This document shows, piece by piece, positions 3,506 to 32,245 of a stretch of 64,000 nt of DNA. How positions within the stretch are numbered: the stretch's first letter is position 1; every line of letters begins with the position of its first letter. The position numbers were made by a program, and so were the translations under genes. The stretch is taken from NCBI GenBank assembly GCA_046761065.1, contig JBHIFL010000004.1, forward strand, positions 15,687 through 79,686, read 5' to 3'. Source of the stretch: Candidatus Heimdallarchaeota archaeon (GTDB lineage: Archaea; Asgardarchaeota; Wukongarchaeia; Wukongarchaeales; JBHIFL01). The notes beneath the pieces were generated by a model. It saw only the letters and a program-made list of their open reading frames with translations, ran no database searches and was not told the DNA's origin.

Positions 3506-4393
3506 TCATCGAGGCACAAAAATAAGTTCACAATCTGCTTCTCTTAGCTGGCGAGTCTTGGCCTCCTTCACTTTGATATTCTTTCCTGTTGCCGCTAAAT
3601 AAAGCCCATCGATGATCCCTTCCACGAACTTACATTGAACCGTTTGACCAATCTCCGGACAAAACACACACCCCTTAATCGTGGTTAAAAACTCTTTTGG
3701 GGTGCGTGCCAACATTTGAACACTAGTGGTACCGTTCGTGGCAATATCTATGACAGCCGAGACGAAGTTAGTAAATTCGTCATGATCCAATGGGTATTTC
3801 GGATTAATTTCATCCTTAAGGAGGGATGCAATATCACGCGCAAATTCTGCCCCTGCCTCATAGATAATACGTCCGGCAACCTGCGGCATGAGCGTCTCAT
3901 GGACCTTCTGCGTAAATTTGTTGAGAAGAGCGCTAGGAATATATGTAAACCGCACCGCTGCGTGAACCAATTCCCTCCAACGAACTTCGTGGCCTTCAAG
4001 TATCCTACCTACCCGGTTCGCGAGTTCCTTGACGGCAGGAAGAATATAGTCGCGATTTGCCCCAGTTCGAAATATGGCTGTAAGCAATCCACGGTATCCC
4101 GCCTTTGCGACAATAAAAAACCCGGTTTGCGTTTCGACAAAAGCCGCATCGAGCTCTCCACGTTGTATTTCACTTCTTACCGATTTCCCGAGGGTATCGA
4201 CTCGTGATGAAACGACAGCAAGCTCTTCATTTTGAATTTGACGTCCACTTGGGCTGTACCCCAATATAGGGAACCCTTCGCGGCTTGTGATCGAGATCAC
4301 GTCAATATGGGAGACCCGGGAACTGAATTCCTTCAGAGCCTCCGTCAATCGCTCTGTAATCACAGGCGACGGTTTACTGCCAGATTGTTCCAT
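3506..4393 (-). CDS. Roadblock/LC7 domain fused to a V4R domain
   Basis: N-terminal ITSREGFPI...ELAVVS...GELD...ETQTGFFIV...GLLTAI roadblock pattern. C-terminal IIYEAG...CVFC...CKFVEGIIDG...VKE...C V4R pattern. Confidence 0.8.
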   Translation of the reverse strand: MEQSGSKPSPVITERLTEALKEFSSRVSHIDVISITSREGFPILGYSPSGRQIQNEELAVVSSRVDTLGKSVRSEIQRGELDAAFVETQTGFFIVAKAGYRGLLTAIFRTGANRDYILPAVKELANRVGRILEGHEVRWRELVHAAVRFTYIPSALLNKFTQKVHETLMPQVAGRIIYEAGAEFARDIASLLKDEINPKYPLDHDEFTNFVSAVIDIATNGTTSVQMLARTPKEFLTTIKGCVFCPEIGQTVQCKFVEGIIDGLYLAATGKNIKVKEAKTRQLREADCELIFVPR

Positions 4394-4753: not shown

Positions 4754-5191
4754 TCAAAACACAATTATCCTGTTCCCCCCCTGTTTTTTTGCTTTTCGAA
4801 GGGCTTTTTTAGCCGATTTAAATAGGGGAATTTGCGTCAAATCACTTGTTTCACTAATTCGCATGTGAAAAGACGGACCAAAAGCCACTCCAATACTAAT
4901 AGTGACAGGAAGACCAAGTTCCCCACCAAGTAAATATAATTTTTTCCGGAGAGTTTCTAAATCTTCCAAGAGTTTTTGGGGGTCAGGAGCTGAGAAAAAC
5001 AGGACTGCTTCCTCAGTTCCTCGCTGGTAATTTATGCCTCGCAAATGGGTTCCATGGTGTTTTGATAGGATCTTGGTCACTAACTCTGTTAATAAACCTG
5101 TCACGACGTTAGGTTTGTACTTAGGCCATCCAGCCTTTTTTGTTATTTCCCCAAAATGATCCAGGTCAAGTATTATCACTCCTTGTTGCAC
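4754..5191 (-). CDS. Standalone GGDEF/mCpol-like palm-domain nucleotide cyclase
   Basis: IILDLDHFG, RGTEEA in place of GGDEF, VTISIGVA, and AKKALRKAKKQGGNRI. The likely start is GTG 5191, with GGAGG just upstream; the ORF track starts it at 5260. Confidence 0.8.
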   Translation of the reverse strand: MQQGVIILDLDHFGEITKKAGWPKYKPNVVTGLLTELVTKILSKHHGTHLRGINYQRGTEEAVLFFSAPDPQKLLEDLETLRKKLYLLGGELGLPVTISIGVAFGPSFHMRISETSDLTQIPLFKSAKKALRKAKKQGGNRIIVF

Positions 5192-5199
5192 GAAAGCCC

Positions 5200-5345
5200 C
5201 TCCGTGAGGAGTTTGCATCCACACCGCTGAGTATGTATCATTTCGCAAGGGATTCACCACGAAACGAATGGGTCATTACTGCCCCAAGAATCTTCCATCT
5301 CGACTGGGCCAGGAATTGCACCTAGCTGTCCTGCGAGGGACGCCG
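5200..5345 (-). ncRNA. Candidate structured ncRNA between the RAMP-HD and GGDEF-like genes
   Basis: Five consecutive minus-strand hairpins: GTCC-ctcgca-GGAC (5341-5328), CTAGG-TGCAATT-CCTGG (5325-5309, T-loop-like), CCCAG...TTGGG (5308-5283), TCGTTTCGTGG-tgaatccc-TTGCGAAATGA (5267-5238), CTCC-tcac-GGAG (5211-5200). Confidence 0.4.
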
Positions 5346-6216
5346 AAGCAATAGATTGAGGAGATGTGTGGATCTGCGCCAAAAACAGGATCCAATTGGC
5401 GACGCCAATCAGGTGATTACGGAGGGTTTCAGTAGGGTGGGTTTTTGAAGCGAGAAAGTGGTGGAGTTCGTTGGAATGATAGGTGAAGGAATAGAGCTGG
5501 TAGACAGAACGGTGGGCGACCTGTTCGAGGTGATTTATAAGGTGATGAGTGTTGATGGGGGCCATCTTCCGCTGGGATGTTGGGAGGTGGAGAAGGCGAG
5601 CATAGCGAGAGGTTCGGGAGTCGGCCTTTTGGAGGAGCTGCAAGTCATGGTTCTGCGGATGAATGTTACACGCGTGATGGTTTTCACATAACCACTGGAT
5701 ATATGGCTCCGGAATCGTAAGTGGGTGACCCAATTTGGAGGGATGGAGATTGGTGTCCACGAGATTGTGGAGGAGGGCAGCCATGACGAGTTGACGTTCA
5801 TGTTGAAAGAGATGGGGAGGCAACCCCTTGAGAATACGAAATTGTGGTCCTAACAGAGGAGACGCCTTTGAGGAATAACAACTTTTTTGGAGGATCCAAC
5901 GCAGGGCACCGTAGCCCCATATCGTGAATTGTCCAACGTACTGCAGCTGCAGAAAGGTTTTGAGTTTGCGGCGCGCCTGTTTGGAGGTGTGGGCCTTGAA
6001 ATCGAGGTGAAGGTAGCCCAGATGGGCGCGTCGGTAGAGCGGGAATCCATGGACGCCTTGTTTCACCACCAGCGTTGTATGACATAAATTACGGGTAGGC
6101 GCCTCGAGATTGATGGAGGGGCGATTTGAGATAATTCCTTGGGCGCCGCATAGCCGTAGGAACCGAGATTTCGCAACAATGGTTGTTAGTGTTTCGGCAA
6201 TGATTCTCACAATCAT
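5254..6216 (-). CDS. Cas5-like RAMP fused to a circularly permuted HD domain (ARAMP-like); HD Asp changed to Asn
   Basis: RAMP glycine loop VGQFTIWGYGALRW, followed by AALLHN, NHH, LQKADSRTSR and a C-terminal TLRNHL helix. This is the permuted HD order seen in Cas10-type HD domains. Confidence 0.65.
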   Translation of the reverse strand: MIVRIIAETLTTIVAKSRFLRLCGAQGIISNRPSINLEAPTRNLCHTTLVVKQGVHGFPLYRRAHLGYLHLDFKAHTSKQARRKLKTFLQLQYVGQFTIWGYGALRWILQKSCYSSKASPLLGPQFRILKGLPPHLFQHERQLVMAALLHNLVDTNLHPSKLGHPLTIPEPYIQWLCENHHACNIHPQNHDLQLLQKADSRTSRYARLLHLPTSQRKMAPINTHHLINHLEQVAHRSVYQLYSFTYHSNELHHFLASKTHPTETLRNHLIGVANWILFLAQIHTSPQSIASASLAGQLGAIPGPVEMEDSWGSNDPFVSW

Positions 6217-6587
6217 GTGGCTACCTCTCCTTCTTCAGCGCCGCGTTGCGGCTCTTGAATCTGGGCCAGCCAATGCGTATAGGCCGCGAAAGCTTGGTCA
6301 AGTTCGGCTTTGAGGGGTGTCACCGTGGTTCTTGGGGTTAGTAGATAGGCTTCGCCGTTCCAAACTCGCTCATAGGTTTGTTCCACCTTTTCAAAGGTGT
6401 TTGCCTGAAGGAATTGTTTGTCCGCGCGCCACGCCTTGGCGGCGCCGACGTCATTACAGCGTTCAAGGCAATGGAGGAGGAAACCCAGCTCTATGGGGTC
6501 AAGAAGGCCGGCAGGAAATTGGAGGTGAGAAGAATTGAAACAGTTGAACCCGGTGAACACGGATAAAAAGGCTAGGCTCCATGGGAT
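6213..6587 (-). pseudogene. 5'-truncated Cas7-like RAMP fragment
   Basis: LDPIELGFLLHCLE...VGAAKAW resembles the Cas7 C-terminal helix plus glycine loop. ATGA overlap with the RAMP-HD gene. The frame closes upstream at TAA 6590-6588, too short for a full Cas7. Confidence 0.5.
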
Positions 6588-6965
6588 TTAAAAGGCTTAG
6601 AACTGGAGACATACATGCGTATCACAGGTATCAAGGATAGAATCCTCGCTAATAAATACCGAAAAACAGCTTGGTCGGCTGTGAAATATCTTCTAGATCA
6701 TTATAAGGACATCGTGTTTATAGGAGTTGGTATTCCATACAATAAGGAATTTATTGGCTTAGATGAAATCGCGCGGATTGGAGATCAATTAGCAAGTTGG
6801 GATTGGGAGCTCCAAGTGTACGTGCTTGACTATCGGCCCGAATTCCGTACGAAAAGGCTCACACACCCTTCTTTCAAGAAGATACAACACATAAAAACAT
6901 TACTAAACGGGACAGGGCTCACTACCGTCATTTGCCAAACGAACAGAGGTCTCATCGGTCCTTAA
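6585..6965 (+). pseudogene. 5'-truncated radical SAM (PFL-activase-like) C-terminal fragment
   Basis: In-frame DLKGLELETYMRITG...GVGIPYN...QVYVLDYRPEFR...VICQT..G.IGP. No CxxxCxxC motif; in-frame TAG at 6573-6575. Confidence 0.7.
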
Positions 6966-7039
6966 GTTAAGGTAGGAAGATTATGATCAATATCCTAGAC
7001 GATAGCATTTAATCGACTCGATCTTCATTTGTTGACAAC

Positions 7040-8194
7040 CTATTTCCCTTTGATATAATCTAGGAGCTCCAAAAGAATAGAGAGAGACATACGATACTTT
7101 GTAGGATCGATCATCCCGGTTATATTCCAGATAATGATGTGACGGAGGCCTACACGATAATATTCTTCTAAATGCTTTATGATATCATTTCTAGTTCCAT
7201 GAAGAAACACCGCTTCCATCACTTCAGGATTGATTAGGTCTAGCATCTTGAGAGCTGCATTACGATCATAGTTTGTCGGAATATAGTCTATAAGGGGGTT
7301 GATATTGGTTTTTCCGAGATACAATGCAAGGGGATGGTTCATGCCCGCTTGTTCAAATAAATAACTCGGGCTGATCAGAGCCCATGCCTTTGCCATCGGC
7401 GTGTTAAAGAGTTTGTGGCAAGCTTCATGCTCTTCAGCGAGAATTGTTAGCGCCCACATGGCTGGAATGAATTTTTGCGGATCACGCTCAGCTTTTCCCA
7501 TAACAGCATGAATCACCTTTAATTTCTCAGCATAATCTTTCACAGATAGCATTGTTGGAATCCAGCCGTCTGCAAGCTCCCCTGTGATCCGTAGCATACG
7601 TGGTCCATGTGCCCCTACTAAAATAGGAGGAGGATGATCCTTTTTATACGGCTCAAGAGCAAGAACCGCATTTTTCATTGTCCAATATTTTCCATCGAAC
7701 GAGAGTGCTTTCCCTGGATTCTCCCAAAACTTTCGGATTATCCTCAGACTTTCTTCTAACCGTCCCACTGGCTCCTTGAAGCTCATCCCATAAGGGATAA
7801 TGTTCTCTGCTTCACCAGCTCCCATGCCTAAAATAAACCGACCTTTTGTCAAATGGTCTAGAGTAAGTGCTGTCTGAGCTAAGATAACTGGATGTCGACG
7901 AATCGACTCAGTGACTGCTGTTCCTAATTTTATCCGTTGAGTTTGTGAGGCATGAGCGGCTATAAGGGAAAACGTGTCAAAGAAGATATGGGGGGATGGT
8001 TGGAACATCGCTACGGGGATTATATCGGGGGTCCAGATGGATTCTGGAATCCATCCCATGAGATGATCAGGATACCACATAGCATGGTATCCCATCTCGT
8101 CGATTCGCTTAGCCACTCGTAGCGAATTTTCTAATGGAGGTAAGATGGGTGGAGGCACTCCAATCTCCAAATTTGCTAGTTCCACGTTTATCAT
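7040..8194 (-). CDS. LLM-class (luciferase-like, probably F420-dependent) oxidoreductase
   Basis: WYPDHL, LGTAVT...RHP..LAQ..LTLDHL.KGRFILGMGAGE, GAHGPRML..TGELADGW. Confidence 0.93.
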   Translation of the reverse strand: MINVELANLEIGVPPPILPPLENSLRVAKRIDEMGYHAMWYPDHLMGWIPESIWTPDIIPVAMFQPSPHIFFDTFSLIAAHASQTQRIKLGTAVTESIRRHPVILAQTALTLDHLTKGRFILGMGAGEAENIIPYGMSFKEPVGRLEESLRIIRKFWENPGKALSFDGKYWTMKNAVLALEPYKKDHPPPILVGAHGPRMLRITGELADGWIPTMLSVKDYAEKLKVIHAVMGKAERDPQKFIPAMWALTILAEEHEACHKLFNTPMAKAWALISPSYLFEQAGMNHPLALYLGKTNINPLIDYIPTNYDRNAALKMLDLINPEVMEAVFLHGTRNDIIKHLEEYYRVGLRHIIIWNITGMIDPTKYRMSLSILLELLDYIKGK

Positions 8195-8539
8195 GTCTCC
8201 TTGGATTAAAAATACTATACCCAGAAAGGAAAGCCTGTATTTATTATTAGTAACATCAATTATGTTAAGGCTTTACCAAAGATTACCTTTCTTAGGTCAT
8301 TAGGTATTAGGTGTTAGTCTGACTCAATTCGATTCACTGCGGTTTGTTTGTATCGTTTAATAATTAGAAATTGATTAGAATATTGAATAATAAATAATAA
8401 GGTCACATGTAGAATGAATACTCTCGCTAAGTTGTATAAGTCAAATAGCAGAGTTTTTTCGTTATCATCTTAACTCAGTGAATTGAGACAATAGCATAGC
8501 CAATAACTTTAAGGAAGCAGATATTCTGCAGCAGAGGAG

Positions 8540-8779
8540 CTATTTTTCGCTTTCGACTTCTTTTTCTGCTGGACCTGATCCTGCAATCTTCTGATAGTGC
8601 TCGTCACACAGCATCACACGTTGAAACGCATGAGGAAGCACCCTAATTTTAGCTGGCTTGCCACATCCCTCGACCGTGCAGAGACCACCACCGAATCCAA
8701 TATGAATTTAGGTGTTTATGTCAGCACCGGTCCACACAACAGGCTTTTCTTCTTCTTCATTTGACAAGGAAATCACCAT
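8540..8779 (-). pseudogene. Small C-x4-C...C-x2-H zinc-finger protein with an in-frame TAA (not in ORF track)
   Basis: MVISLSNEEEEKPVVWTGADINT*IHIGFGGGLCTVEGCGKPAKIRVLPHAFQRVMLCDEHYQK...EK*. The stop is at 8710-8708. GGTGA lies upstream of an alternative TTG start at 8767. Confidence 0.55.
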
Positions 8780-8962
8780 TGACCTACTTGAGTGCAGCGA
8801 TCCGTTCAATTCCCAAGGTGTCTATAATGTACACTCCATAATACAATAATAAGTCTTGGTGATTAAACTCCACGTTTTGTACGAAATGGATTTTTAGTAT
8901 TCTAGAATGATTGCCGTTTAAGAATGTTAGAAGGAATTTTATGCAAAATTGTAGAGGTTTAG

Positions 8963-9697: not shown

Positions 9698-10639
9698 TTA
9701 CAGGGATGTCCAGCCACAACAAGCCATTGGGCACTTTTGCCATTTTTCTTCGGCATTAATAATCTGTGAAATCACTCCGTTTGGCATCATATCGCCATCT
9801 AGAGTGAGTAATTTGCCAATTATGCCTATATCTTGCTTGCTCAGCTCTGGGAGATTGGACCATCCTTTGAATTGGCCAGTTGGGGTAATACAAAGTCGGG
9901 TGGAATATTGGCATTTCGCTCCACAAGCACAAGTAGTTGGTGAGATAAAGACTTCTCCAGTTCGGAGATTCACGTGAAACCTATATCGTGATTTTACAAG
10001 TGGGACTGTGTCTATTTCGATATAATAACCGAGAGCCTTTATGATCTGTTTGAGCGGTTCAAGATTTCTCGAAGGGTTATAATCCTGATAAGCCGTTTCA
10101 AGCATAAGATCAGCTAAATACTGAAATACTCTAATAATATCGTCCTGAATAGTGGTTCTAACTTCTTGGTAGTGAGCAGAATGGTGGTGAGCAAGACGAC
10201 ATGCTTTGTTCGCTTGAAATTGCCTACCTGAAGGGGGATCTACGCAACCTACCACTAGTTTTGTTGCAGAACATGCGTTTTTTTCGATAAGTGGGAGCCA
10301 ATAATTGGAAACACGTTCCAATTGCTATCGTTGATTGACATCTATTACTATGACGCAACCAGAGGCGCCTTTTAAAAATGATGGAATGATATTAGCGAAC
10401 CGCGAGCCACTATGAAGGACCCATAACTGGAGTTTCACCATATGTTCTATTTCACGCTGAACGGAGAGAACACTGACCCCAAAATCTATGCCAAGAGTTT
10501 TCTTGGATGATGTGGATAATGAGATTGGAGAGAGTATTGCGAATAGAGCATCTTTTAAGGATTCACTTTCACCCATGAGTAAGGTTTTGAATAAAATCGT
10601 ATTAAACACGATAATCACTTTTTTGGGATATGAAGCCAC
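9698..10639 (-). pseudogene. Rab-like pseudo-GTPase plus Cys-containing C-terminal domain, split by a single in-frame TAG
   Basis: ORFs 10325-10639 and 9698-10321 are in the same frame: ...KGASGCVIVIDVNQR*QLERVSNYWLPLIEK... TLGIDF and KLQLW are retained, but G1 (GESESLKD), G3 and G4 are degenerate. Confidence 0.7.
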
Positions 10640-11304
10640 TCAAGGGAATTCCTCTGTTCTTATCTCTATCCTCATCAATGAACCACAAAAGGAGCATCTT
10701 TCTGGTCCGGTCAGCAGAGGCTCCGTGTCTTCTTTGAAGCAGTACAAACTCTCTTTATATCATTCGTATAAAATGATTTTTGATTTGGGAGGGCTATATT
10801 TCTTATTCTAACCTTAAGAAACTGGATTGGCATTATAACTAAAATCTGGGTAATAAAAGATTCTTGTGACTTCTGAATTGAGCTATATAAATGGTTTATA
10901 GATTTAACAACCTACCCTCAAATCATCACACCTGATCTGGTAAAACGCGAGGTTTTTAAGGATCTTTAGGTTGTTTTCACACAATACCAAACTATAGGAT
11001 TTCACCGAACCACCAATATAATTTACATGCATATCATATGGAATTTTTCAGTGGGAAGTTCACCTAAGCTTCCAGACACCTGAATTCTCTTGAAAACCTT
11101 TAATGTATGTAAAGTAATGGCAGGCGCTATAGATTGCAATTCCAAATTGATTCACTACTTTAATATAGAATGTTTTGCATGATGTGGATAGCTCCTAAAA
11201 GACCGAGATCATTCATAAACCTCTCAAGACTCTAATTGCCTTCAACAAAGCTTCAGATCCTAGTCTTCAGAAACCCCATCAGGTAGACTATATTCCAATT
11301 AAAA

Positions 11305-11961
11305 GTGTTCTCAACAAATCCTACCCATATACCAAATATCCTATCAACTACTTGGAAAGACGTGGGACTCAAGATGATAGAACGTAGACCTCTAAAAGAG
11401 ACCCCGGACTACAAACTTAAGATCATCGTAGCTGGAGCAGGTGGTGTCGGCAAAACTACGTTGGTTCATCGCTTCTTGTCGGGTCAGTTTTTAAAGTTCT
11501 CCATGACTATCGGGGTATCATTTCAAACCCACACCCTCGTACTAAAGAACAATAAGACGGTTAAACTAATTATCTGGGATTTAGGAGGGCAAGAACGCTT
11601 CAGACAGATGTCAGTCTTTGAATCATATTGCATAGGGGCCCATGGAATAATTTTAGCCTTAGATATGACAAGTGCAGTGCGTACAATACAAGAATTGAAT
11701 GATTGGACAACTATTGTGCGTGGGGGAGCGCCAAACGCCCCAATAGTCCTCATTGGGACGAAAGCAGATCTCATGATCGAGGGTATTGATCTTCCTCGTG
11801 ATTTGATTGACCACTTCATTGAGGAAAACGACATCCAGGGTTTTTTTGAGACGAGTTCTTTAACGGGACAAAACGTGCAAGAAACGTTTATCCACCTTGT
11901 CAACCTTATTTTAAAACAAAGCAATCTAAGGGGGGAAGCGACCTCAGAGACTGCGATTTAA
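11305..11961 (+). CDS. Rab-like small GTPase
   Basis: GAGGVGKT, TIG, WDLGGQERF, GTKAD, ETSS. The true start may be ATG 11374. Confidence 0.95.
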   Translation: MFSTNPTHIPNILSTTWKDVGLKMIERRPLKETPDYKLKIIVAGAGGVGKTTLVHRFLSGQFLKFSMTIGVSFQTHTLVLKNNKTVKLIIWDLGGQERFRQMSVFESYCIGAHGIILALDMTSAVRTIQELNDWTTIVRGGAPNAPIVLIGTKADLMIEGIDLPRDLIDHFIEENDIQGFFETSSLTGQNVQETFIHLVNLILKQSNLRGEATSETAI

Positions 11962-16039: not shown

Positions 16040-16341
16040 AAATTCCTCGTACCTTCAAACCTATCCAAGCTAAACCCCAGCAATTTAAGACAAATGAGTA
16101 GAGCAAGATCTTCTAGTTAACTCCCATAAACATATTGAGAGTACCCTACGAAGGAGAAAGATTACACGAGAGAAAGTCCACTTGCTATTTTTCGAGATGA
16201 AGATGATTCCGCCCCTTGATTTTTCTAGTGAACCGACAACTATTTACATATGATTTGGTTTCAGTTGATGAGGAATCAGTATTCTTGCACCATCTTCCCG
16301 TTTGTATTGGTGAATCCCCCTGAATCAAAGAAACCTGAATT

Positions 16342-22279: not shown

Positions 22280-25200
22280 TCATGCACCCTCGACATCGAC
22301 TATTACTTGCCCGCCTTCCCCAACTATTGCTTCTTCTCCGTAGAGTTCCTGATAGGCAGCAATAATCCGCGTCACTAAGCTCCGTAAGCCATCCATCTGA
22401 GCGGAAATATTCTCTCTTGGAACTTTCGTTTCGATTAATGAGCGGATCTGTCGTACCGAAGGAAGAATCTCTGGTGAAAAGATATTGGTGAGCTCACTAT
22501 ACACCGGATCGACCAGAAGGTTGATCGTCATATTTTCCTTCCCGCCCCGGGCTTCCGGATTGTCGATGGCAAATGCGTAGGATACGCACATCATCCGGGC
22601 CTCGCCCAACCTGAGATCAAAGATAGTCACTTTCTCCTCGGTTGTTTCTTCAACAAAACCGCCTGCGCTAAAGGAACGGTCGGAGAGATCGACTAAGAAT
22701 TGCATATGATCCTCCAGCAAAGATGGCGTGATAATACTTGGGACGGGACCCTCACGTTGATCGAAAAAGGAAAGTATGACCCCATAGGTATGATCATCGA
22801 GCCGGGCGATTACCTCATCGTCCGACATTTGATTTGCAATGGCCATCACGCGCTCTTTGTCTAACCCAACAACCTTGCGGAACTTCTTGATGGCAATACC
22901 TGTCGTGACGGCGGCAGCCGCAATTATTCCAAACAGATAGATGAGGGGAATCCCCTTTGTTGCAGTTATGTATGGTGTCTTCACCCACACATCCCAAGCC
23001 TCGGTGTTCGCATTTCCACCTAAATCCTTGGTCGCAATAGTCCACAGGATTGGACTTCCTGGCTCAACTTGCACTTTTGCCGAATAATGTGTGGTATTAA
23101 TCGACTGCATTGGTGCTTGCCGCCAAGTCGTACCTTCATCAACCGAGTAGATAAATTCAAGGCTATCGACTCCGGTCCCTTTTTCTGCCACTTCAGCCCA
23201 AATTGTTAGGTCCCCATCCCCAGGGTCGATAATTCCCGCATCAAGGACGCGCGGCGGTGCCCCATCCCCCACGATTTGCTCCGACGCTCCTCCTTCAACC
23301 TGGAGGTTCGCACCATCTGCTACGGTGATCGTATACGAGAACATTGTTTGATACCCGAGGTTCTCATCATGGATATAGTGCGTTCCATTAAAGCGCATTA
23401 CTCGTTCTATCTGCGAAATAGTGCCCAGGGAGGAGGTTGCGCTTGCACTCTTGCTTAGCGTGGACGACTCGCTGATGGAAATTGAGAGGCTGACATTTTC
23501 GATGCTTCCAAAGGGATCCTCAGCACTCACCCAGAATCGGACATGACCTTCCTCATCGGGTAGCAGGTTATACCCGAAGGAATTGATCTGTGGTGGCGTC
23601 TTGTCGGGCACTGCAAACTTATACGCAATCCCAATCCCTACGTTTGAGTTGTTTGCTTTGTCCTTTGCCTGTATGGAGAAGTCAATGACATCTCCCACCC
23701 TTAAGCCAGTAAATTCGTGGATATAATATGTCCCATTCCACGTCATTGGAATGGTCTGAGAGACTTCGTAATTTTTTTGGAATACTATGGAAACCGTATT
23801 TCTTTCCTCCGGGAAACCGCTCCCCAAGTTGCCATCCGTCACATTCGCCCAGAGGACTGCCGTCCCATTCTGGAATTCCTCACCTCCCGCACCCATAACA
23901 CGCGGGGGGACGATATCCTGAACTGTGTGTCCCGATTCGAATTGTGTATCTTTATTGCCCGCGGTATCCCGGACCGTGATCTCGAAATTGAAGGTGTTCT
24001 CGTACGGAAGCTCGGTGTCATAGTAGTAATAGGCTCCAACCCATAGCATTGCCCCTTCCTCTTGTTGGTCGCCCGTGATATTGATCATCAGTTTCCCTAT
24101 CGTCCCAAAAGGATCATCAGCATAGCACCAAAACCGGATGTGACCATCCGAATCAGGCAAGTAATCGTAACCAATCTGGTCGATTACGGGAGCCGTGTGG
24201 TCGCTTACCCCAGCCATTCTCCAGAAGCCCATCCCTTGGTTCCCTGCATTGTCTTGGGCGCGTACTTGGTAATTGATCACATCTCCAACGAACAAGCCGC
24301 CAACGGTGTAGTCATAGTTCGACCCGCCAACCGACACCATTTTTCTTGTCTGTTGGGCACCTCCCCCCACCCGATAGATGAAAACCACGGTGTCGGGATT
24401 AATCCCGCTCCCGCGTTGACCGTCGGTCACCTGCACCCGAAAAGTTACCGTCCCGTCTTGGTTATCCCATTGGGCCACGGTGACAAAATTCTGGCGTGGA
24501 GGGGCGACTTGATCGAGAACCGTGCCTGTGCGTGGTGAGGTTTGATTTGTTAGACCCGCCATATTTGAGGCCGTAATATTGTATGAAAACGAAGTACCAG
24601 AGTTTACGAGCAAATCATACTCGTAGAAAGTTCCATTGTAGGTCATTATCCCGCTAAATTGAGAAGGGCTGCCCTCAACGCGAACCTCTTTAATACTACC
24701 AATATCTTCAGTGACATCCGCCCAGAAGCAGATATGCCCATCTACATCTTTTATAAAATAGTATCCTGACGCATGGATCGTAGGGGGTGTCTCATCGCCT
24801 ACGCCATACATGTAGGATGGACTTATCCGGGAATTATATTCAATGTCCTCGACCTTGACCTGGTACGCAAGAATGTCACCTGCCAGAAGGTTCGCGAGTG
24901 TATAAGTATAAAAATCACTAGTTCCGTTCCATACCATTTGCTTATAGAAGGGACCAATACCATTCTTCCTATATGTGAGCAAAACACTGTCATTAGCTTC
25001 AGGGAATCCTGAGCCGATCCCATCGTTTGTTTTGGCCCAAATCGTGACGGTACCATTATGAAAATCTTGAATACCAGTATCAAGTTCCGGAGGAGCCTTA
25101 TCGGGCACATAAGTGGTCGGTCCTCCACCAAGAAGACTTGCGGAAAGGCCAGCATTATCGAAGGCAGTCACATTGTACGTAACAGCCATTCGAGTCGTAG

Positions 25201-28200
25201 GTTTAGTCTCCCAGTAGGCAATGTTGGTGTCATTTATGTAGAAGGTTCCATTATAGATCAATGAGTAGATATTAGAAGCACCTGAGGAAAGCGTAATGTT
25301 GATGGAAATGCGGCTGGTGTCCAAGCCACTGTAGCTATCACTAATATCAGCCCAAAAGCGCATGTGCCCGTTGACATCCGGCACTGCCTTAAATCCCACA
25401 GTAGTGATTACAGGGAATTGTAGATCTTCAGTAATCAAGCTATGTTGCACGTCCCACACATTTGCAAGGGTCGTATTCTTGTTACCACTTTCATCCCTCG
25501 CAAGAGCAATGGTATAATTTATAGCGTACGGTGACAGTGTTGTATTCCAATCGAAGAACTTGTCCCACACCCAAAACGTACCATTGTTCCACATCACCTC
25601 TGTTTGTGGAACCGGGTTTACAGTGGAATTATACTTGAAGTCGACTCTTGACACATTATAATTGTCAGTCACATCCGCCCAGAAGCGTACCGTCCCATTT
25701 CCATAGTATTCATGACTATAGGCGTTAATCACTGGAGGCACAGTGTCTTGCGGGTTGAAATACCCCGGATTATCCTGGTTATCTACAAAATTGCCTTTTC
25801 GATCTGTTGCATTGATGTAATAGTACAACCATTCATTTGACGCTAAAGAAACATTGTGAACCCAATGGGTGTTATTCCACGTCATTGGCTGTGGTGTTCC
25901 ATATGGAGGGTTCACTATGAAATAAGTTACAGTTACCCCAGCAGGGCTATCTTCAATCCCACTCCCATTGACCGAATCGCTTGCGGTGCTCCAAATGGTG
26001 GCAGTGCCCCCAGAATACGTCACACCAGAATCTCCCAGACTTGGAGCTACTTTGTCTAGCACAGGTTGATTAAATACGCTGTTCGAATCGGAAAGACCAG
26101 ATAGGTCAGAAACAGTGACTGTATAATTAAAGAGATTTTGTGTTTTTATACCTTCATCATCACCATTGTTGATGCCTCCCACCCAATAAGGCAGTTTTAC
26201 CTCAACGATAAAGTGTGTTCCATTAAAGGACATGGAGTAAATCCTCGGTCCAACGGGATCCGTTGCGGTGATATTGACGAAGCCGCTGGTAGGATCGATT
26301 CCGGGAAAAATATCCGTTGCATTGAACCAGAAGAGAAGAAGCCCATCCTCTGCTGGTAACGCCTTATAATTTTTGTCTTGAATGATTGGGGGAGCAATTA
26401 TACCCTCCAAATGCAAAGCCCAATGAAATGCGCGATCAAAAAGTGCCCATCCCTCTGTAGTTAGAGCACTACCATTTGGAGCTGGCCAAAATACACGCCG
26501 TTCAGGTGCCGTGTAAAGAGGAATGTAAGTCTTATTTCCTTTCTCAAGTGCGATCAGTTGCCCCTGAGACGAATTATTAACAGCGCGTGCTAAAAGGTCG
26601 ATTTCGCTTCCACTCGGCAGTGGGTCATAGTCTATCAGATAACTCATTGTTGCCGGTACGGAATAGATGCGGTTAATGCCGGATTGAAGGCTTGTAGTAA
26701 TGTTATGTGTAGTATTTACGATGTAGATCTCATCATCCTGTAATGTGCCATGGTTTGATCCTAAGTAGAGTTCATCGAACGTTCGTGATTCCCAACTGAG
26801 AATTGGAATCGGAGTCTCACGCAAACTGATAGTCCACGCATCCGAGGCCGTTATAGAAATCAAGACTCCATCATAACCTTCCAAATAAAATGGAGTGGTT
26901 GAAGTATCCTTGTTCTCCCGACCGTGATAATCCACCACATAGCCTAGGTCTTGCACGATATGGTTGTAAAAGGGGGCATTGCTGAACACCTCATCTGTAT
27001 TGGTTTGTTCGATTCCAACTGTATAAAAGGAATCCGGATCGATCTGGTTATTAAATTCGGTATTAAGCCACGCTTCACTTCTTGCCACATATGACAACCG
27101 CACTTCCTGCAACAGCCCATCAAACCCGCGGTCTGCCTGCGGAACATTTCCAATAGTCGGTTGGATACTGTAGTCATACAAGTCTGTTCCGCTGATCGTT
27201 TGAGTTAAATCCAGGGTTCCATTGCGGTAAATGCGTAGATTGTTTGAACCTCCTGCTGACCAGGTTAACGCATAATGAGTCCAAGTGTAAAACGTCCAAT
27301 CCGTCCCCCCACCCACCGCTTTCCTCTCAGCATTTGTCCGAAGACCACTTTTCACGTCATTATCTTTCCCTAATTTCCATACCATATCCGCTCCCCCACT
27401 TTCCCAAGCTTTTGCAAAGATGAAATCGTCTCCGCTATCGTGGGGGTTCATCCACACTTGAACGGTTATGTTGATCCAATCCTGATCGTTAATGTGATCC
27501 AGCCTAATCAGATCACCAGCCCAGTCATGAAAATTTTGGGCATACCCAAACAAGCCGCCCACTCGGGAGGGGGTTTGGAATGCGTCTCCATCTCCCTCTA
27601 CGCCACCACCGGTTCCATGATGCCGATGCCCCGAACTATCCGTGAACTCGTCATCCTGTCCGCTCCCCATTTCTTGCAGATGGAGGACTGCTTCATACCC
27701 ATTGCTCCAGACCCCGACCGGATTCGCTTGTGATTCTATATCGGGATTACCATATTTCATCGTAATGACGGTATCTGTCGTGTTTGAAAGGTCGCATTTG
27801 ACCCAAGCGATCAAGAGCGCCTCGGAAGGGCTATAACTTTGATCGAATAGGACTAGCTCATGATCTAACTGGTTATCCGCAGAATCAAAGAACGCGATAT
27901 CATCTCCATCACTCTGCACATCCGTTTTCAGATCGGTGTCATGCAGTCGAAGCAGGGTAGGAAAATCGGTCAGATCAGCAACGACTTGTGTATGATCAAT
28001 TGTGATGTCTTTAGAGTATGTATATGCCACTTGGAAATCAGGGTCTGTGGAGTCGTAAGTGACAAGCATGAGATGCGTGGCTAGAGGGGATTTGAGCTCA
28101 ACCGTTGGTTCCGGATTGACAAAGTTGCGAACGATGACATCGTCAAACCAGCCCTCACCATAGAGCGCGAGTTGTCCGGCAGCATCAAGGGCATAGACTG

Positions 28201-30967: not shown

Positions 30968-32245
30968 TTATGCTAATTTAACCTCAAACCGACCGCTTTC
31001 TATATCACCGCTCAGGACGACTACACCCTCCTCCTCTAGTTCCCTAAGTACACCCCTGATCATGGCAGTACTCACCTGGAGTCGTGAGGCGATTGTAATC
31101 GCTGATGCGGTAACCATTTCCTCAATTATTTTTCGGACCTTATCTTTTATTGTGCCAGCAGCAGGGGTGGGAGTTACAACAGAAGTGACAGGAGGGCTGG
31201 GAGCAGGTTCAGGTATAGAAGTAGGTTGAGTTGCAGGCGGAACGTGTGCCATTTTTGAGATAACGTCCTCTAAAACTTTAAACCGCTTAATGATTTCGTT
31301 CATATCGATCGATGGAGTGGCCGGTGTTGCAGCCTTAAGAACCCCAAGGGATTCCTCGATCTCAGCTAGTTTTCCACTGAGAACCGCTATTTTATTTTCT
31401 ATCTCCCCCTGTCCGGCTTCGAGCTGATCGAGTCGGGTTGTGTCGGCAGGTACAAGAGCTCCAAGTCCTTCCAACCGTTGGTGGAGCTCCTGATGACCCT
31501 TCCTCAAGCTTGTCAAGGTCTGATCGAAATCAGCTAATTTCTTCTCGATTTGATTCAACTGTGCAGTCTCAGTGACTGCGGGAGCGGTCGGTGTTGCGGT
31601 CTTGAGGGCTCCTAAGGTTTCTTCGATCTCCACGAGTTTTCCACGGAGAATGGTCAGTTTGTTTTCCATCGCTCCTTGCTCTGCTTCGAGCTGATCGAGT
31701 CGGGTTGTGTCGGCAGGTGTGGAAGGTCCAATTTCCTCTAGTTGTTGGTGAATCCCCTTCAGGCCCTCTCTCAAGTCTGCCAGGGTCTGATCAAAATCAT
31801 CGTATTTCTGCTCTACTTGACTCAATCGCTTGGTTCCCGACTCAAGCTTCCCATCAAGTTCCTTAAGTTTTTCTGGGGCGATTCCTTCGGGTCTTTGTTG
31901 GAGTTCCTGTAATTCCTTGCGTAGGGCTGTCAACATCTGATCGACTGCTTCAAACTTTTGCTCAATCTGGTTCAACCGGTCGATTTCTGAGTTGATCTTT
32001 GTATCCAGTCCCTTCAGCTTTTCCGGGTCAAATCCTTCTGGAACCAGTTGTTCTTTTCTTTTGGTTAAATCAACTGCCGCATTAACTGCCTCTGCTAATT
32101 TTTGCAATTGGTTATTTTGTTTTTTGAGGTTTGCTTCTTGGTTCTTCACATCTTTTACAAGATCACCCACTTTTTTCTTTAGATCCATGACTACAACTTT
32201 TATGGCTTTTATCGACCTATCAAGCTTCTTAGTATCCTCAGGCAA
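30968..32245 (-). CDS. Long coiled-coil protein with internal duplications and C-terminal wHTH
   Basis: Heptad repeats, duplicated PADTTRLDQLEA...GKL.EIEE.LG.LK.ATP, and terminal IASRLQVSTAMIRGVLRELEEEGVV. Confidence 0.85.
   Translation of the reverse strand: MPEDTKKLDRSIKAIKVVVMDLKKKVGDLVKDVKNQEANLKKQNNQLQKLAEAVNAAVDLTKRKEQLVPEGFDPEKLKGLDTKINSEIDRLNQIEQKFEAVDQMLTALRKELQELQQRPEGIAPEKLKELDGKLESGTKRLSQVEQKYDDFDQTLADLREGLKGIHQQLEEIGPSTPADTTRLDQLEAEQGAMENKLTILRGKLVEIEETLGALKTATPTAPAVTETAQLNQIEKKLADFDQTLTSLRKGHQELHQRLEGLGALVPADTTRLDQLEAGQGEIENKIAVLSGKLAEIEESLGVLKAATPATPSIDMNEIIKRFKVLEDVISKMAHVPPATQPTSIPEPAPSPPVTSVVTPTPAAGTIKDKVRKIIEEMVTASAITIASRLQVSTAMIRGVLRELEEEGVVVLSGDIESGRFEVKLA
31416..31718. 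repeat. Intragenic direct repeat, 36 bp identical, 267-bp period
   Basis: GCTTCGAGCTGATCGAGTCGGGTTGTGTCGGCAGGT at 31416-31451 and 31683-31718. Confidence 0.9.

Follow-up and report, generated by a model that had tools for sequence, protein, structure and literature searches.

Closest described systems

ARAMP systems are array-less CRISPR derivatives of Asgard archaea, with a mechanism described as enigmatic in the review passages devoted to them (PMC8730458, PMC12669027). Here we analyze an ARAMP locus in a 64,000-nucleotide stretch of a Candidatus Heimdallarchaeota archaeon genome (contig JBHIFL010000004.1, positions 15,687 to 79,686; hereafter, the window; the genome is denoted G000). The locus consists of a Cas7-like remnant, a fusion of a RAMP with an HD domain (RAMP-HD) and a structured RNA-like element that abuts a gene for a stand-alone palm-domain protein. 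This is probably what is left, after decay, of the right-hand end of an ARAMP mobile element with Cas1, which inserted into the beginning of the palm gene and acted through the steps proposed below. The best reading would be an RNA-guided, DNA-targeting, Cas1-bearing mobile element, with the guide role of the window's RNA family suggested by analogy with a sister clade of such units.

The traits that link the locus to ARAMP as outlined in the review passages are the Asgard host, diverged Cas7 and, tentatively, Cas5-like RAMPs nearest to those of type III, the lack of an array, a PD-(D/E)xK nuclease and, in most copies, a distinct Cas1. The host, the diverged Cas7 (truncated in the window) and the missing array are found at the locus itself, and the nucleases and the distinct Cas1 in intact copies of the island, not in the window. 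In contrast, nothing is said in the same passages about an RNA partner, a guide, the targeting of start codons or a spread in multiple copies, and the window copy is a stump. Gene content and the intact islands support the assignment to derived, array-less RAMP modules of the ARAMP type, one of the two kinds of such modules that an earlier note on this DNA had cited as described. The underlying system is a known one; the RNA component and the mechanism are new as far as the literature found goes, and the searches, the scope of which did not include the primary ARAMP and HRAMP papers, returned no description of an ARAMP RNA. HRAMP, as presented in the review section on it (PMC8730458), similarly combines Cas5 and Cas7 with nucleases and lacks an array but belongs to another host group, whereas the present locus is distinguished by a Cas1/helicase island, the HD fusion and the terminal RNA.

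Other systems share single aspects of the islands. In TnpB/IscB OMEGA systems of IS200/IS605 elements, the right end is defined by a structured RNA that extends over the 3' part of the nuclease gene, with the flank as the candidate guide, and the aCas1-TnpB elements of Asgard archaea (PMC10691335) provide a link to Asgard Cas1. A structured RNA that overlaps a nuclease gene at the element end is present here, and a guide with a matching DNA target is seen in the sister clade, with no second-site target for the window's family; the islands do not show the combination of a TnpB, IscB or IsrB nuclease with a Y1 or serine transposase, and the effector is built from several class 1-type subunits (Cas7 and RAMP-HD) rather than from a single RuvC/HNH protein. 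The permuted HD fold resembles that of type III Cas10 (Csm1), the two-RAMP complex without a large subunit (predicted here from the genes) resembles the minimal Cas5 and Cas7 of type I-F2, and six-base periodic pairing, as in class 1 complexes, is found in the sister clade. Unlike type III and I-F2 systems, the module contains no palm domains, no CRISPR RNA (crRNA) array and no Cas6, and it is predicted to target host sites and the promoter of the element itself; of the type III hallmarks, the Cas10-type HD domain is present (with the catalytic Asp replaced by Asn in this haplotype) but a palm cyclase conserved with the RAMPs is not. VIPR also achieves RAMP-based, RNA-guided DNA recognition and transcriptional silencing without arrays but relies on one RAMP, from a phage, and on an RNA of GGY/NN repeats, and the paper that describes it makes no mention of ARAMP or Asgard (bioRxiv 10.64898/2026.04.26.720920). 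Casposons (casposase, PDB 6opm) are likewise self-contained elements with a Cas1-family putative integrase; in contrast, family B polymerase (PolB), terminal inverted repeats and target duplication were not found here, and the Cas1 domain lies in a protein of 1300-1470 aa. Finally, the palm protein shares its fold and the acidic DxD motif of the first strand with GGDEF cyclases and mCpol (Panoptes OptS, 9mnr) but differs in carrying RGTEEA, in staying below all curated cut-offs, and in having neither a sensor domain nor an identifiable effector partner.

Insertion at the start of a host palm gene

The program-made list of open reading frames (ORFs) includes three overlapping ORFs on the minus strand (6213-6560, 5254-6216 and 4754-5260); their linkage and the motifs reported for them in the earlier note agree with the ORF coordinates and a motif check. 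Empty alleles of the palm locus exist (L025, L062-L065), and relatives at ~83% nucleotide identity have the gene order radical SAM, palm, Roadblock-V4R, nucleotidyltransferase, from which RAMP genes are absent. Homology to the empty allele starts again at window position 5172, which is palm codon 7, and the junction between host and element falls somewhere within 5171-5179. The element supplies palm codons 1-7 in register, with its GTG aligned with the old start, so that the length of the palm protein is kept.

On the opposite side, bases 6528-6587, which lie within the span given in the earlier note, are the antisense of a disrupted radical-SAM gene, the intact counterpart of which is transcribed divergently from the palm gene in the relatives. 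The remnant of this gene, with further lesions (a 76-bp deletion and a 9-bp insertion), by comparison with the relatives' sequences marks a deletion that took the 5' part of the island; the same deletion removed two thirds of the radical-SAM gene. The original promoter region of the palm gene is also deleted. The left-flank peptide MEPSLFI, which is in register, was ruled out as the original palm start because it is antisense radical-SAM sequence.

The palm protein comprises ~145 aa from a start at 5191, and the first 23 codons of the ORF as called are structured non-coding element; homologues have 139-167 aa, and most start ~7 residues upstream of DLD. The boundary of the called ORF is incorrect, whereas the fold assignment of the earlier note stands: the model (predicted local distance difference test (pLDDT) 90) has the GGDEF/mCpol/cyclase fold and matches diguanylate cyclases (Z 14.0), mCpol OptS (9mnr; Z 13.5) and Cmr2 (Z 11.4). 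At the profile level, the protein reaches an E-value of 1.2e-5 with TIGR00254, under the cut-off, and 21.3 bits with the GGDEF profile (cut-off 23.8), and has no match to PF18182 or to any mCpol or Cas10 profile in Pfam, NCBIfam and PADLOC. RGTEEA takes the place of GG(D/E)EF, the invariant residues of the family are kept, no sensor domain is attached, and the genomic context is housekeeping. The family of stand-alone archaeal palm proteins to which it belongs (window 4754-5191; L027-L029) has invariant DLDxF, YxPN and GTEE, occurs in Asgard, Nezhaarchaeota and others, and has no match in curated profiles.

Among the loci compared, palm and RAMP-HD genes are paired at the window locus and in its sister samples alone; the latter are four samples from hydrothermal vents, all of one study, in which this stretch is assembled unbroken and among which its source may be. 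G000 has one palm gene and more than 20 RAMP-HD matches; among genomes screened for the two genes, G005, G027 and G037 have the palm gene without RAMP-HD, and G010, G020 and G040 the reverse. In ~40 other RAMP-HD loci, many of them compared with 1.5-kb flanks, a span sufficient for an adjoining gene, there is no palm gene. None is listed in five complete islands (C36, L082-L085), which end at five different host genes, and three distant genomes have the palm gene flanked by ftsZ- and tgtA-like genes. By this genomic distribution, the palm gene is a host gene and the insertion target, not a member of the module, and the overlap between the palm and RAMP-HD ORFs is due to the RNA element rather than to gene coupling.

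The RAMP-HD fusion, the Cas7 remnant and their decay

RAMP-HD consists of a RAMP (residues ~1-112, with a G-loop at 95-103) and a permuted HD domain (~137-284), and its last ~35 codons overlap the RNA element. The best match of the HD part is the HD domain of Cas10/Csm1 (6ifk_A, Z 10.0, root mean square deviation 3.2, 143 aligned residues; another match has Z 8.9), as the earlier note had claimed. As for its Cas5-like label, the N-terminal region is ferredoxin-like with a terminal G-loop and has weak matches, in a low-confidence region of the model, to Cas6 (Z 5.7) and Csm subunits (Z 5.0), which do not distinguish Cas5 from other RAMPs. The model has a mean pLDDT of 60, with good values solely in the helical half; Foldseek gave no match for it, Cas5 is not among the VIA-align matches listed (the RAMP half being of low confidence), and all Atlas matches lie below 0.9. 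Neither RAMP-HD nor the Cas7 piece of the window has a match in Pfam, NCBIfam or PADLOC, and no ARAMP profile was matched in the libraries searched.

The Cas7-like identity of the fragment is borne out by 62% identity to residues 282-386 of a 388-aa paralogue on C25, which also shows that the homology ends at ~6527. The C25 and C12 Cas7 proteins are 28% identical, and Cas7 homologues match the RAMPs PF03787 and Csm3 models. The remnant keeps the last third or less of the gene, the 5' part being deleted, and in alignment with C25 and C36 its G-loop reads GAAKAWRAD against GAAKAWGAG, with both terminal glycines lost. In RAMP-HD, the HD aspartate, present in at least 90% of homologues, is N151 (an H-N motif), and the sequence deviates at 7 alignment columns that are otherwise at least 90% conserved, compared with a median of 1.5 such deviations in 19 homologues. 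Base 5766 toggles between HN and HD, with D151 in two of the four sister samples. To judge from the sequence, the window copy of the island is decaying. All five variants among the sister samples (4866, 5029, 5766, 5801 and 6414) alter proteins and fall in the palm or RAMP genes; four are single-nucleotide polymorphisms, each changing a residue, and the fifth is a one-base deletion in the palm gene of one sample. These few variants suggest relaxed selection, short of proof. Pairwise ratios of nonsynonymous to synonymous substitution are ~0.1 for palm, RAMP-HD and even the radical-SAM remnant, which mirrors the old divergence and so does not date the decay.

Short ORFs (144-146 aa) at the Cas7 position are also seen in L016 and L081.

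Intact islands and the giant Cas1 protein

The five complete islands span ~10 kb and encode a phosphoesterase, a helicase and a protein of 1300-1470 aa, followed by divergent PD-(D/E)xK nuclease (assigned by motif reading alone), Cas7 and RAMP-HD; each is adjoined on the right by a different, unrelated host gene. The C-terminal part of the giant protein aligns with sister-clade proteins that match Cas1: Pfam Cas_Cas1 is detected in 5 of 7 aligned members (best E-value 1.4e-7), and the best solved match of the profile is 6opm (E-value 3.5e-4). The statement of the earlier note that no cas1 is present was accurate for the window; a Cas1-like gene lies outside it, in intact copies elsewhere in the same genome. 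No family B polymerase was seen in C36, L082-L085 or six units of G040, no relatives were found in viral_contigs or by a pattern search of genome_contigs, and a 20-base pattern from the RNA element listed bacterial records alone, which were regarded as chance.

A third Cas1-like open frame, of 850 aa, is located on G000 C17 near 49946 (minus strand). One island alone includes an IscB-like gene (RRXRR + HNH), upstream of Cas7 (L015:2855-4378).

The terminal RNA-like element

The ~180-nt element (5171-5351) is present in ~49 copies in G000, with sharp ends, and most copies come without RAMP genes. Across 19 copies, 39 base pairs are predicted, 12 of them with compensatory change, and 94% of the cells are paired; none of 500 shuffles equaled the covariation score, in a test that is inflated by the relatedness of the copies. 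The G-U pairs are confined to this strand, which suggests RNA. The single copy in the window folds no better than shuffles (z -0.8), and the claim of RNA structure rests on covariation, not on the fold of one copy. Rfam contains no family matching the element.

The element has its own runs of purines resembling Shine-Dalgarno (SD) sequences and an in-frame RTG (5191 in the window). Among the 23 copies with an ATG-led ORF within 16-75 nt, 15 have the ATG at offset 21-22 (12 after merging orthologous sites), compared with a random-position rate of 0.6%. An SD-like sequence is located 8 nt upstream of many host ATGs, and the element's own RTG is within a predicted helix. In other copies, this RTG runs in frame into start-less host ORFs, namely, an XPD helicase on C36 and the palm gene in the window.

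Several further copies were noted. In L085, the flank after the terminal RNA (11043-11070) reads like fumB codons 10-18 of another allele, and an intact fumB starts ~380 nt downstream (11426-11696); on G000 C9, the element adjoins the fumB ATG. The nuclease, Cas7 and RAMP-HD genes of the island itself contain or are preceded by RNA copies (L085:8789-8963; L084:7987-8152, 8851-8952 and 9821-9998), one of them reversed. On L070 (G000 C115), C131 and C87, several worn copies are interspersed with toxin-antitoxin-like genes of the PIN/DUF433 type. The C12 ARAMP locus has yet another, third kind of repeated element (L067; G000 C12:13948-14079 and 16101-16260; also C15:11053 and C30:22746); its terminal copy ends in GTTGAAAAC, which resembles a crRNA 5' handle, and another copy is in frame inside a PD-(D/E)xK-like ORF.

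Guide-target matches in the sister clade

In the sister clade (G040, G057, G020), the units encode helicase-Cas1, Cas7 and a RAMP-HD with ~27-30% identity to that of the window, and carry a different covarying RNA of ~125 nt, which separates cas7 from RAMP-HD and also follows RAMP-HD. A unit of ~6.5 kb (helicase-Cas1, cas7, RNA, RAMP-HD, RNA) is common to six G040 loci, and the shared sequence stops at the 3' end of the RNA.

In all eight anchored internal RNA copies, the 42 nt that follow match the unit's own cas7 promoter on the same strand, across a TATA-like box, with 31-38 of 40 positions identical (38 in L075); a ninth internal copy (L073) has no such match. The mismatches recur at every sixth base (43 of 56 such positions, compared with 20 of 280 elsewhere; 19 against 10 in distinct types; binomial p 6e-9), the position at which pairing is disrupted by RAMP thumbs in class 1 complexes (bioRxiv 10.64898/2026.04.26.720920). 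Plain duplication would not yield a six-base period, and the target, being a promoter, points to DNA rather than mRNA. Among terminal copies, L040, L075, L077 and L079 have guide-like host matches 120-650 nt downstream, including ftsY, at 21-24 of 28 positions (background mostly 18-20); other copies have no match. The covariance model of the window's RNA family finds no elements of the sister clade or of the C12 type, and a reverse search with hidden Markov models was likewise null.

Two G040 loci have additional features: a GIY-YIG-like ORF lies between two terminal RNA copies in L074 (C4, oriented 7926-8546), and L076 (C5, oriented 6662-6783 and 8499-8545) has an extra RNA copy, with a 3' flank that matches the host ~50 nt past the right end (24 of 28).

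Layout of the locus and other features of the window

The G+C content is ~52% over 5200-6600, 33-48% in the flanks and 42% on average in the genome, in line with the compositional step observed earlier. The window contains no CRISPR array, as had been reported, and none was found genome-wide by a 24-mer scan (the genome is 91% complete); no Cas6 or small subunit was identified in the window or in the gene lists of the full islands. The closest named homologues of the locus proteins come from Heimdallarchaeota and Hodarchaeota, and the Roadblock and small-GTPase genes of the window are Asgard traits.

Table 1. Features of the locus and its surroundings (positions in the window).
Feature	Position	Strand	Basis or remark
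Stump of ARAMP island	5171-6527	-	right-hand (3') end of ~10-kb unit
Cas7-like remnant, ~104 codons, 3' part	6213-6527	-	62% identity to C25 paralogue
RAMP (Cas5-like)-HD fusion, 320 aa	5254-6216	-	homologue alignment and structure model
Structured RNA-like element, right end of island	5171-5351	-	recurrence and covariation
Host stand-alone palm gene (GGDEF/mCpol fold; DLD, RGTEEA)	4754-5191	-	empty alleles, fold
Radical-SAM pseudogene, 3' third	6528-6965	+	79% nucleotide identity to L025:3655-4037 and 4114-4143
Host Roadblock-V4R gene, conserved downstream neighbour of palm (synteny marker)	3506-4393	-	profile match, synteny
Host luciferase-like monooxygenase gene, conserved upstream neighbour (synteny marker)	7040-8194	-	profile match, synteny

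A 12/12 match to the sigma-70-type consensus at 7032-7059 (plus strand), antisense to the end of the luciferase-like gene, is probably due to chance in an archaeal host. Imperfect repeat families with units of 35-41 nt and a 245-nt tandem duplication (74% identity), at 23358-26233 and 31314-31825, are probably intragenic.

Proposed mechanism and alternative explanations

The element landed at the start of the palm gene, with its RNA end taking over codons 1-7 and providing its own in-frame start, and a later deletion removed the 5' part of the island together with two thirds of the radical-SAM gene. By analogy with the sister clade, the RNA would be a scaffold bound by the RAMP-HD subunit, and the ~36-42 nt that follow it a guide held under a Cas7 filament, so that the complex could pair with DNA. 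The internal RNA copy is predicted to target the element's own cas7 promoter, causing autorepression, and the terminal copy the host insertion site. The HD domain might then cut element-free alleles, or the complex might steer the Cas1 integrase, and the element would home or be retained in a manner comparable to that of TnpB in IS200/IS605; the SD sequence and start codon of the element putatively rescue the host gene. The palm protein would have no part in this mechanism. The broader proposition is that ARAMP islands form an undescribed class of RNA-guided mobile elements, in which a Cas7 and RAMP-HD effector with a non-CRISPR scaffold RNA and a 3' guide binds DNA, represses its own promoter and directs homing or Cas1 insertion at host gene starts, where the RNA end supplies the ribosome site and the start codon; in our estimate, it is evenly balanced between true and false.

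Several observations weigh against the preferred reading. The guide evidence, at the level of sequence, comes from the sister clade, the RNA of which is not detectably homologous to that of the window, and the eight guides represent about three lineages, so that the p-value overstates their independence. No second-site target of the 3' flanks in the window's family rises above background, genome-wide or locally, an absence that is expected if the flank and the guide are one and the same DNA and the target is the empty allele; the guide-like cases L084/EMG1 and L085/fumB are within the null range at the nucleotide level. The RAMP half of the RAMP-HD model is of low confidence, the two giant proteins of G000 are recognized as Cas1 by alignment to G040 proteins, with no direct matches, and neither a target-site duplication nor an inverted repeat nor a left end that is conserved was found in C36, L082-L085 or the six G040 units.

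The lack of second-site targets would be natural if, with the same relic history, the 180-nt element served as a site for recognition or recombination at the terminus, or were a small, non-autonomous unit that the Cas1 protein mobilizes, with start-codon placement reflecting integrase preference and selection for host expression. The ~49 copies, mostly without RAMP genes, the copies within the island's own genes (one reversed) and the copy run between toxin-antitoxin-like genes on C115 all fit such a unit. However, numerous conserved G-U pairs can form on just one of the strands, a feature suggestive of RNA, the sister-clade element that occupies the equivalent position is followed by a guide showing the six-base signature, and the roles of site and guide are compatible, as in the right ends of IS200/IS605; we regard this non-guide reading as rather unlikely. 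In C36 and L084, the element immediately precedes genes of the island itself, and elsewhere it comes just ahead of many host ATGs, where an SD-like sequence is found at a distance of 8 nt and the element's own RTG lies in a predicted helix; this placement could also be that of a cis-acting leader (an operator or riboswitch) that is bound by the RAMP proteins, controls translation of the next gene and was recruited before housekeeping genes. Such a leader is improbable, given that the downstream genes are functionally unrelated and vary from genome to genome, a gene is missing downstream of many copies, the palm gene of the relatives lacks the element and the promoter-matching guides would go unexplained.

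The earlier note had seen in the three ORFs a type III-like effector, a split Cas10 with the HD function in RAMP-HD and the cyclase in the palm protein, possibly producing a cyclic-nucleotide signal. The Cas10-like HD domain, the palm fold that ties with mCpol and has Cmr2 among its matches, the retention of the family's invariant residues and the overlap of the ORFs as called agree with this proposal. Nevertheless, the empty alleles largely refute it, and it is highly improbable: among the loci compared, co-occurrence of palm and RAMP-HD is nil outside this locus and its sister samples, in three other genomes the palm gene has ftsZ- and tgtA-like neighbors, the ORF overlap comes from the RNA element rather than from gene coupling, the Cas7 gene of this haplotype is truncated and its HD motif reads HN, and the palm protein matches no mCpol or Cas10 profile. 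The palm gene as cyclase partner, and its linkage to RAMP-HD homologues elsewhere, on which the note had staked the proposal, are thus not sustained.

Implications

The window locus provides a clean before-and-after comparison of an element replacing the first codons of a host gene in register. Insertions of this kind create false operons, in this case a convincing but accidental pairing of HD and palm domains. An RNA partner, a guide position, named DNA targets and a six-base signature open ARAMP, enigmatic in the review passages on it (PMC8730458), to binding, cleavage and reporter assays. If the preferred reading is true, the ARAMP islands would encode a programmable complex of class 1 type that targets DNA, is very small and is coupled to a Cas1 integrase. 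Under the broader proposition made above, they would be the class 1 equivalent of TnpB/OMEGA and would connect casposons with CRISPR effectors.

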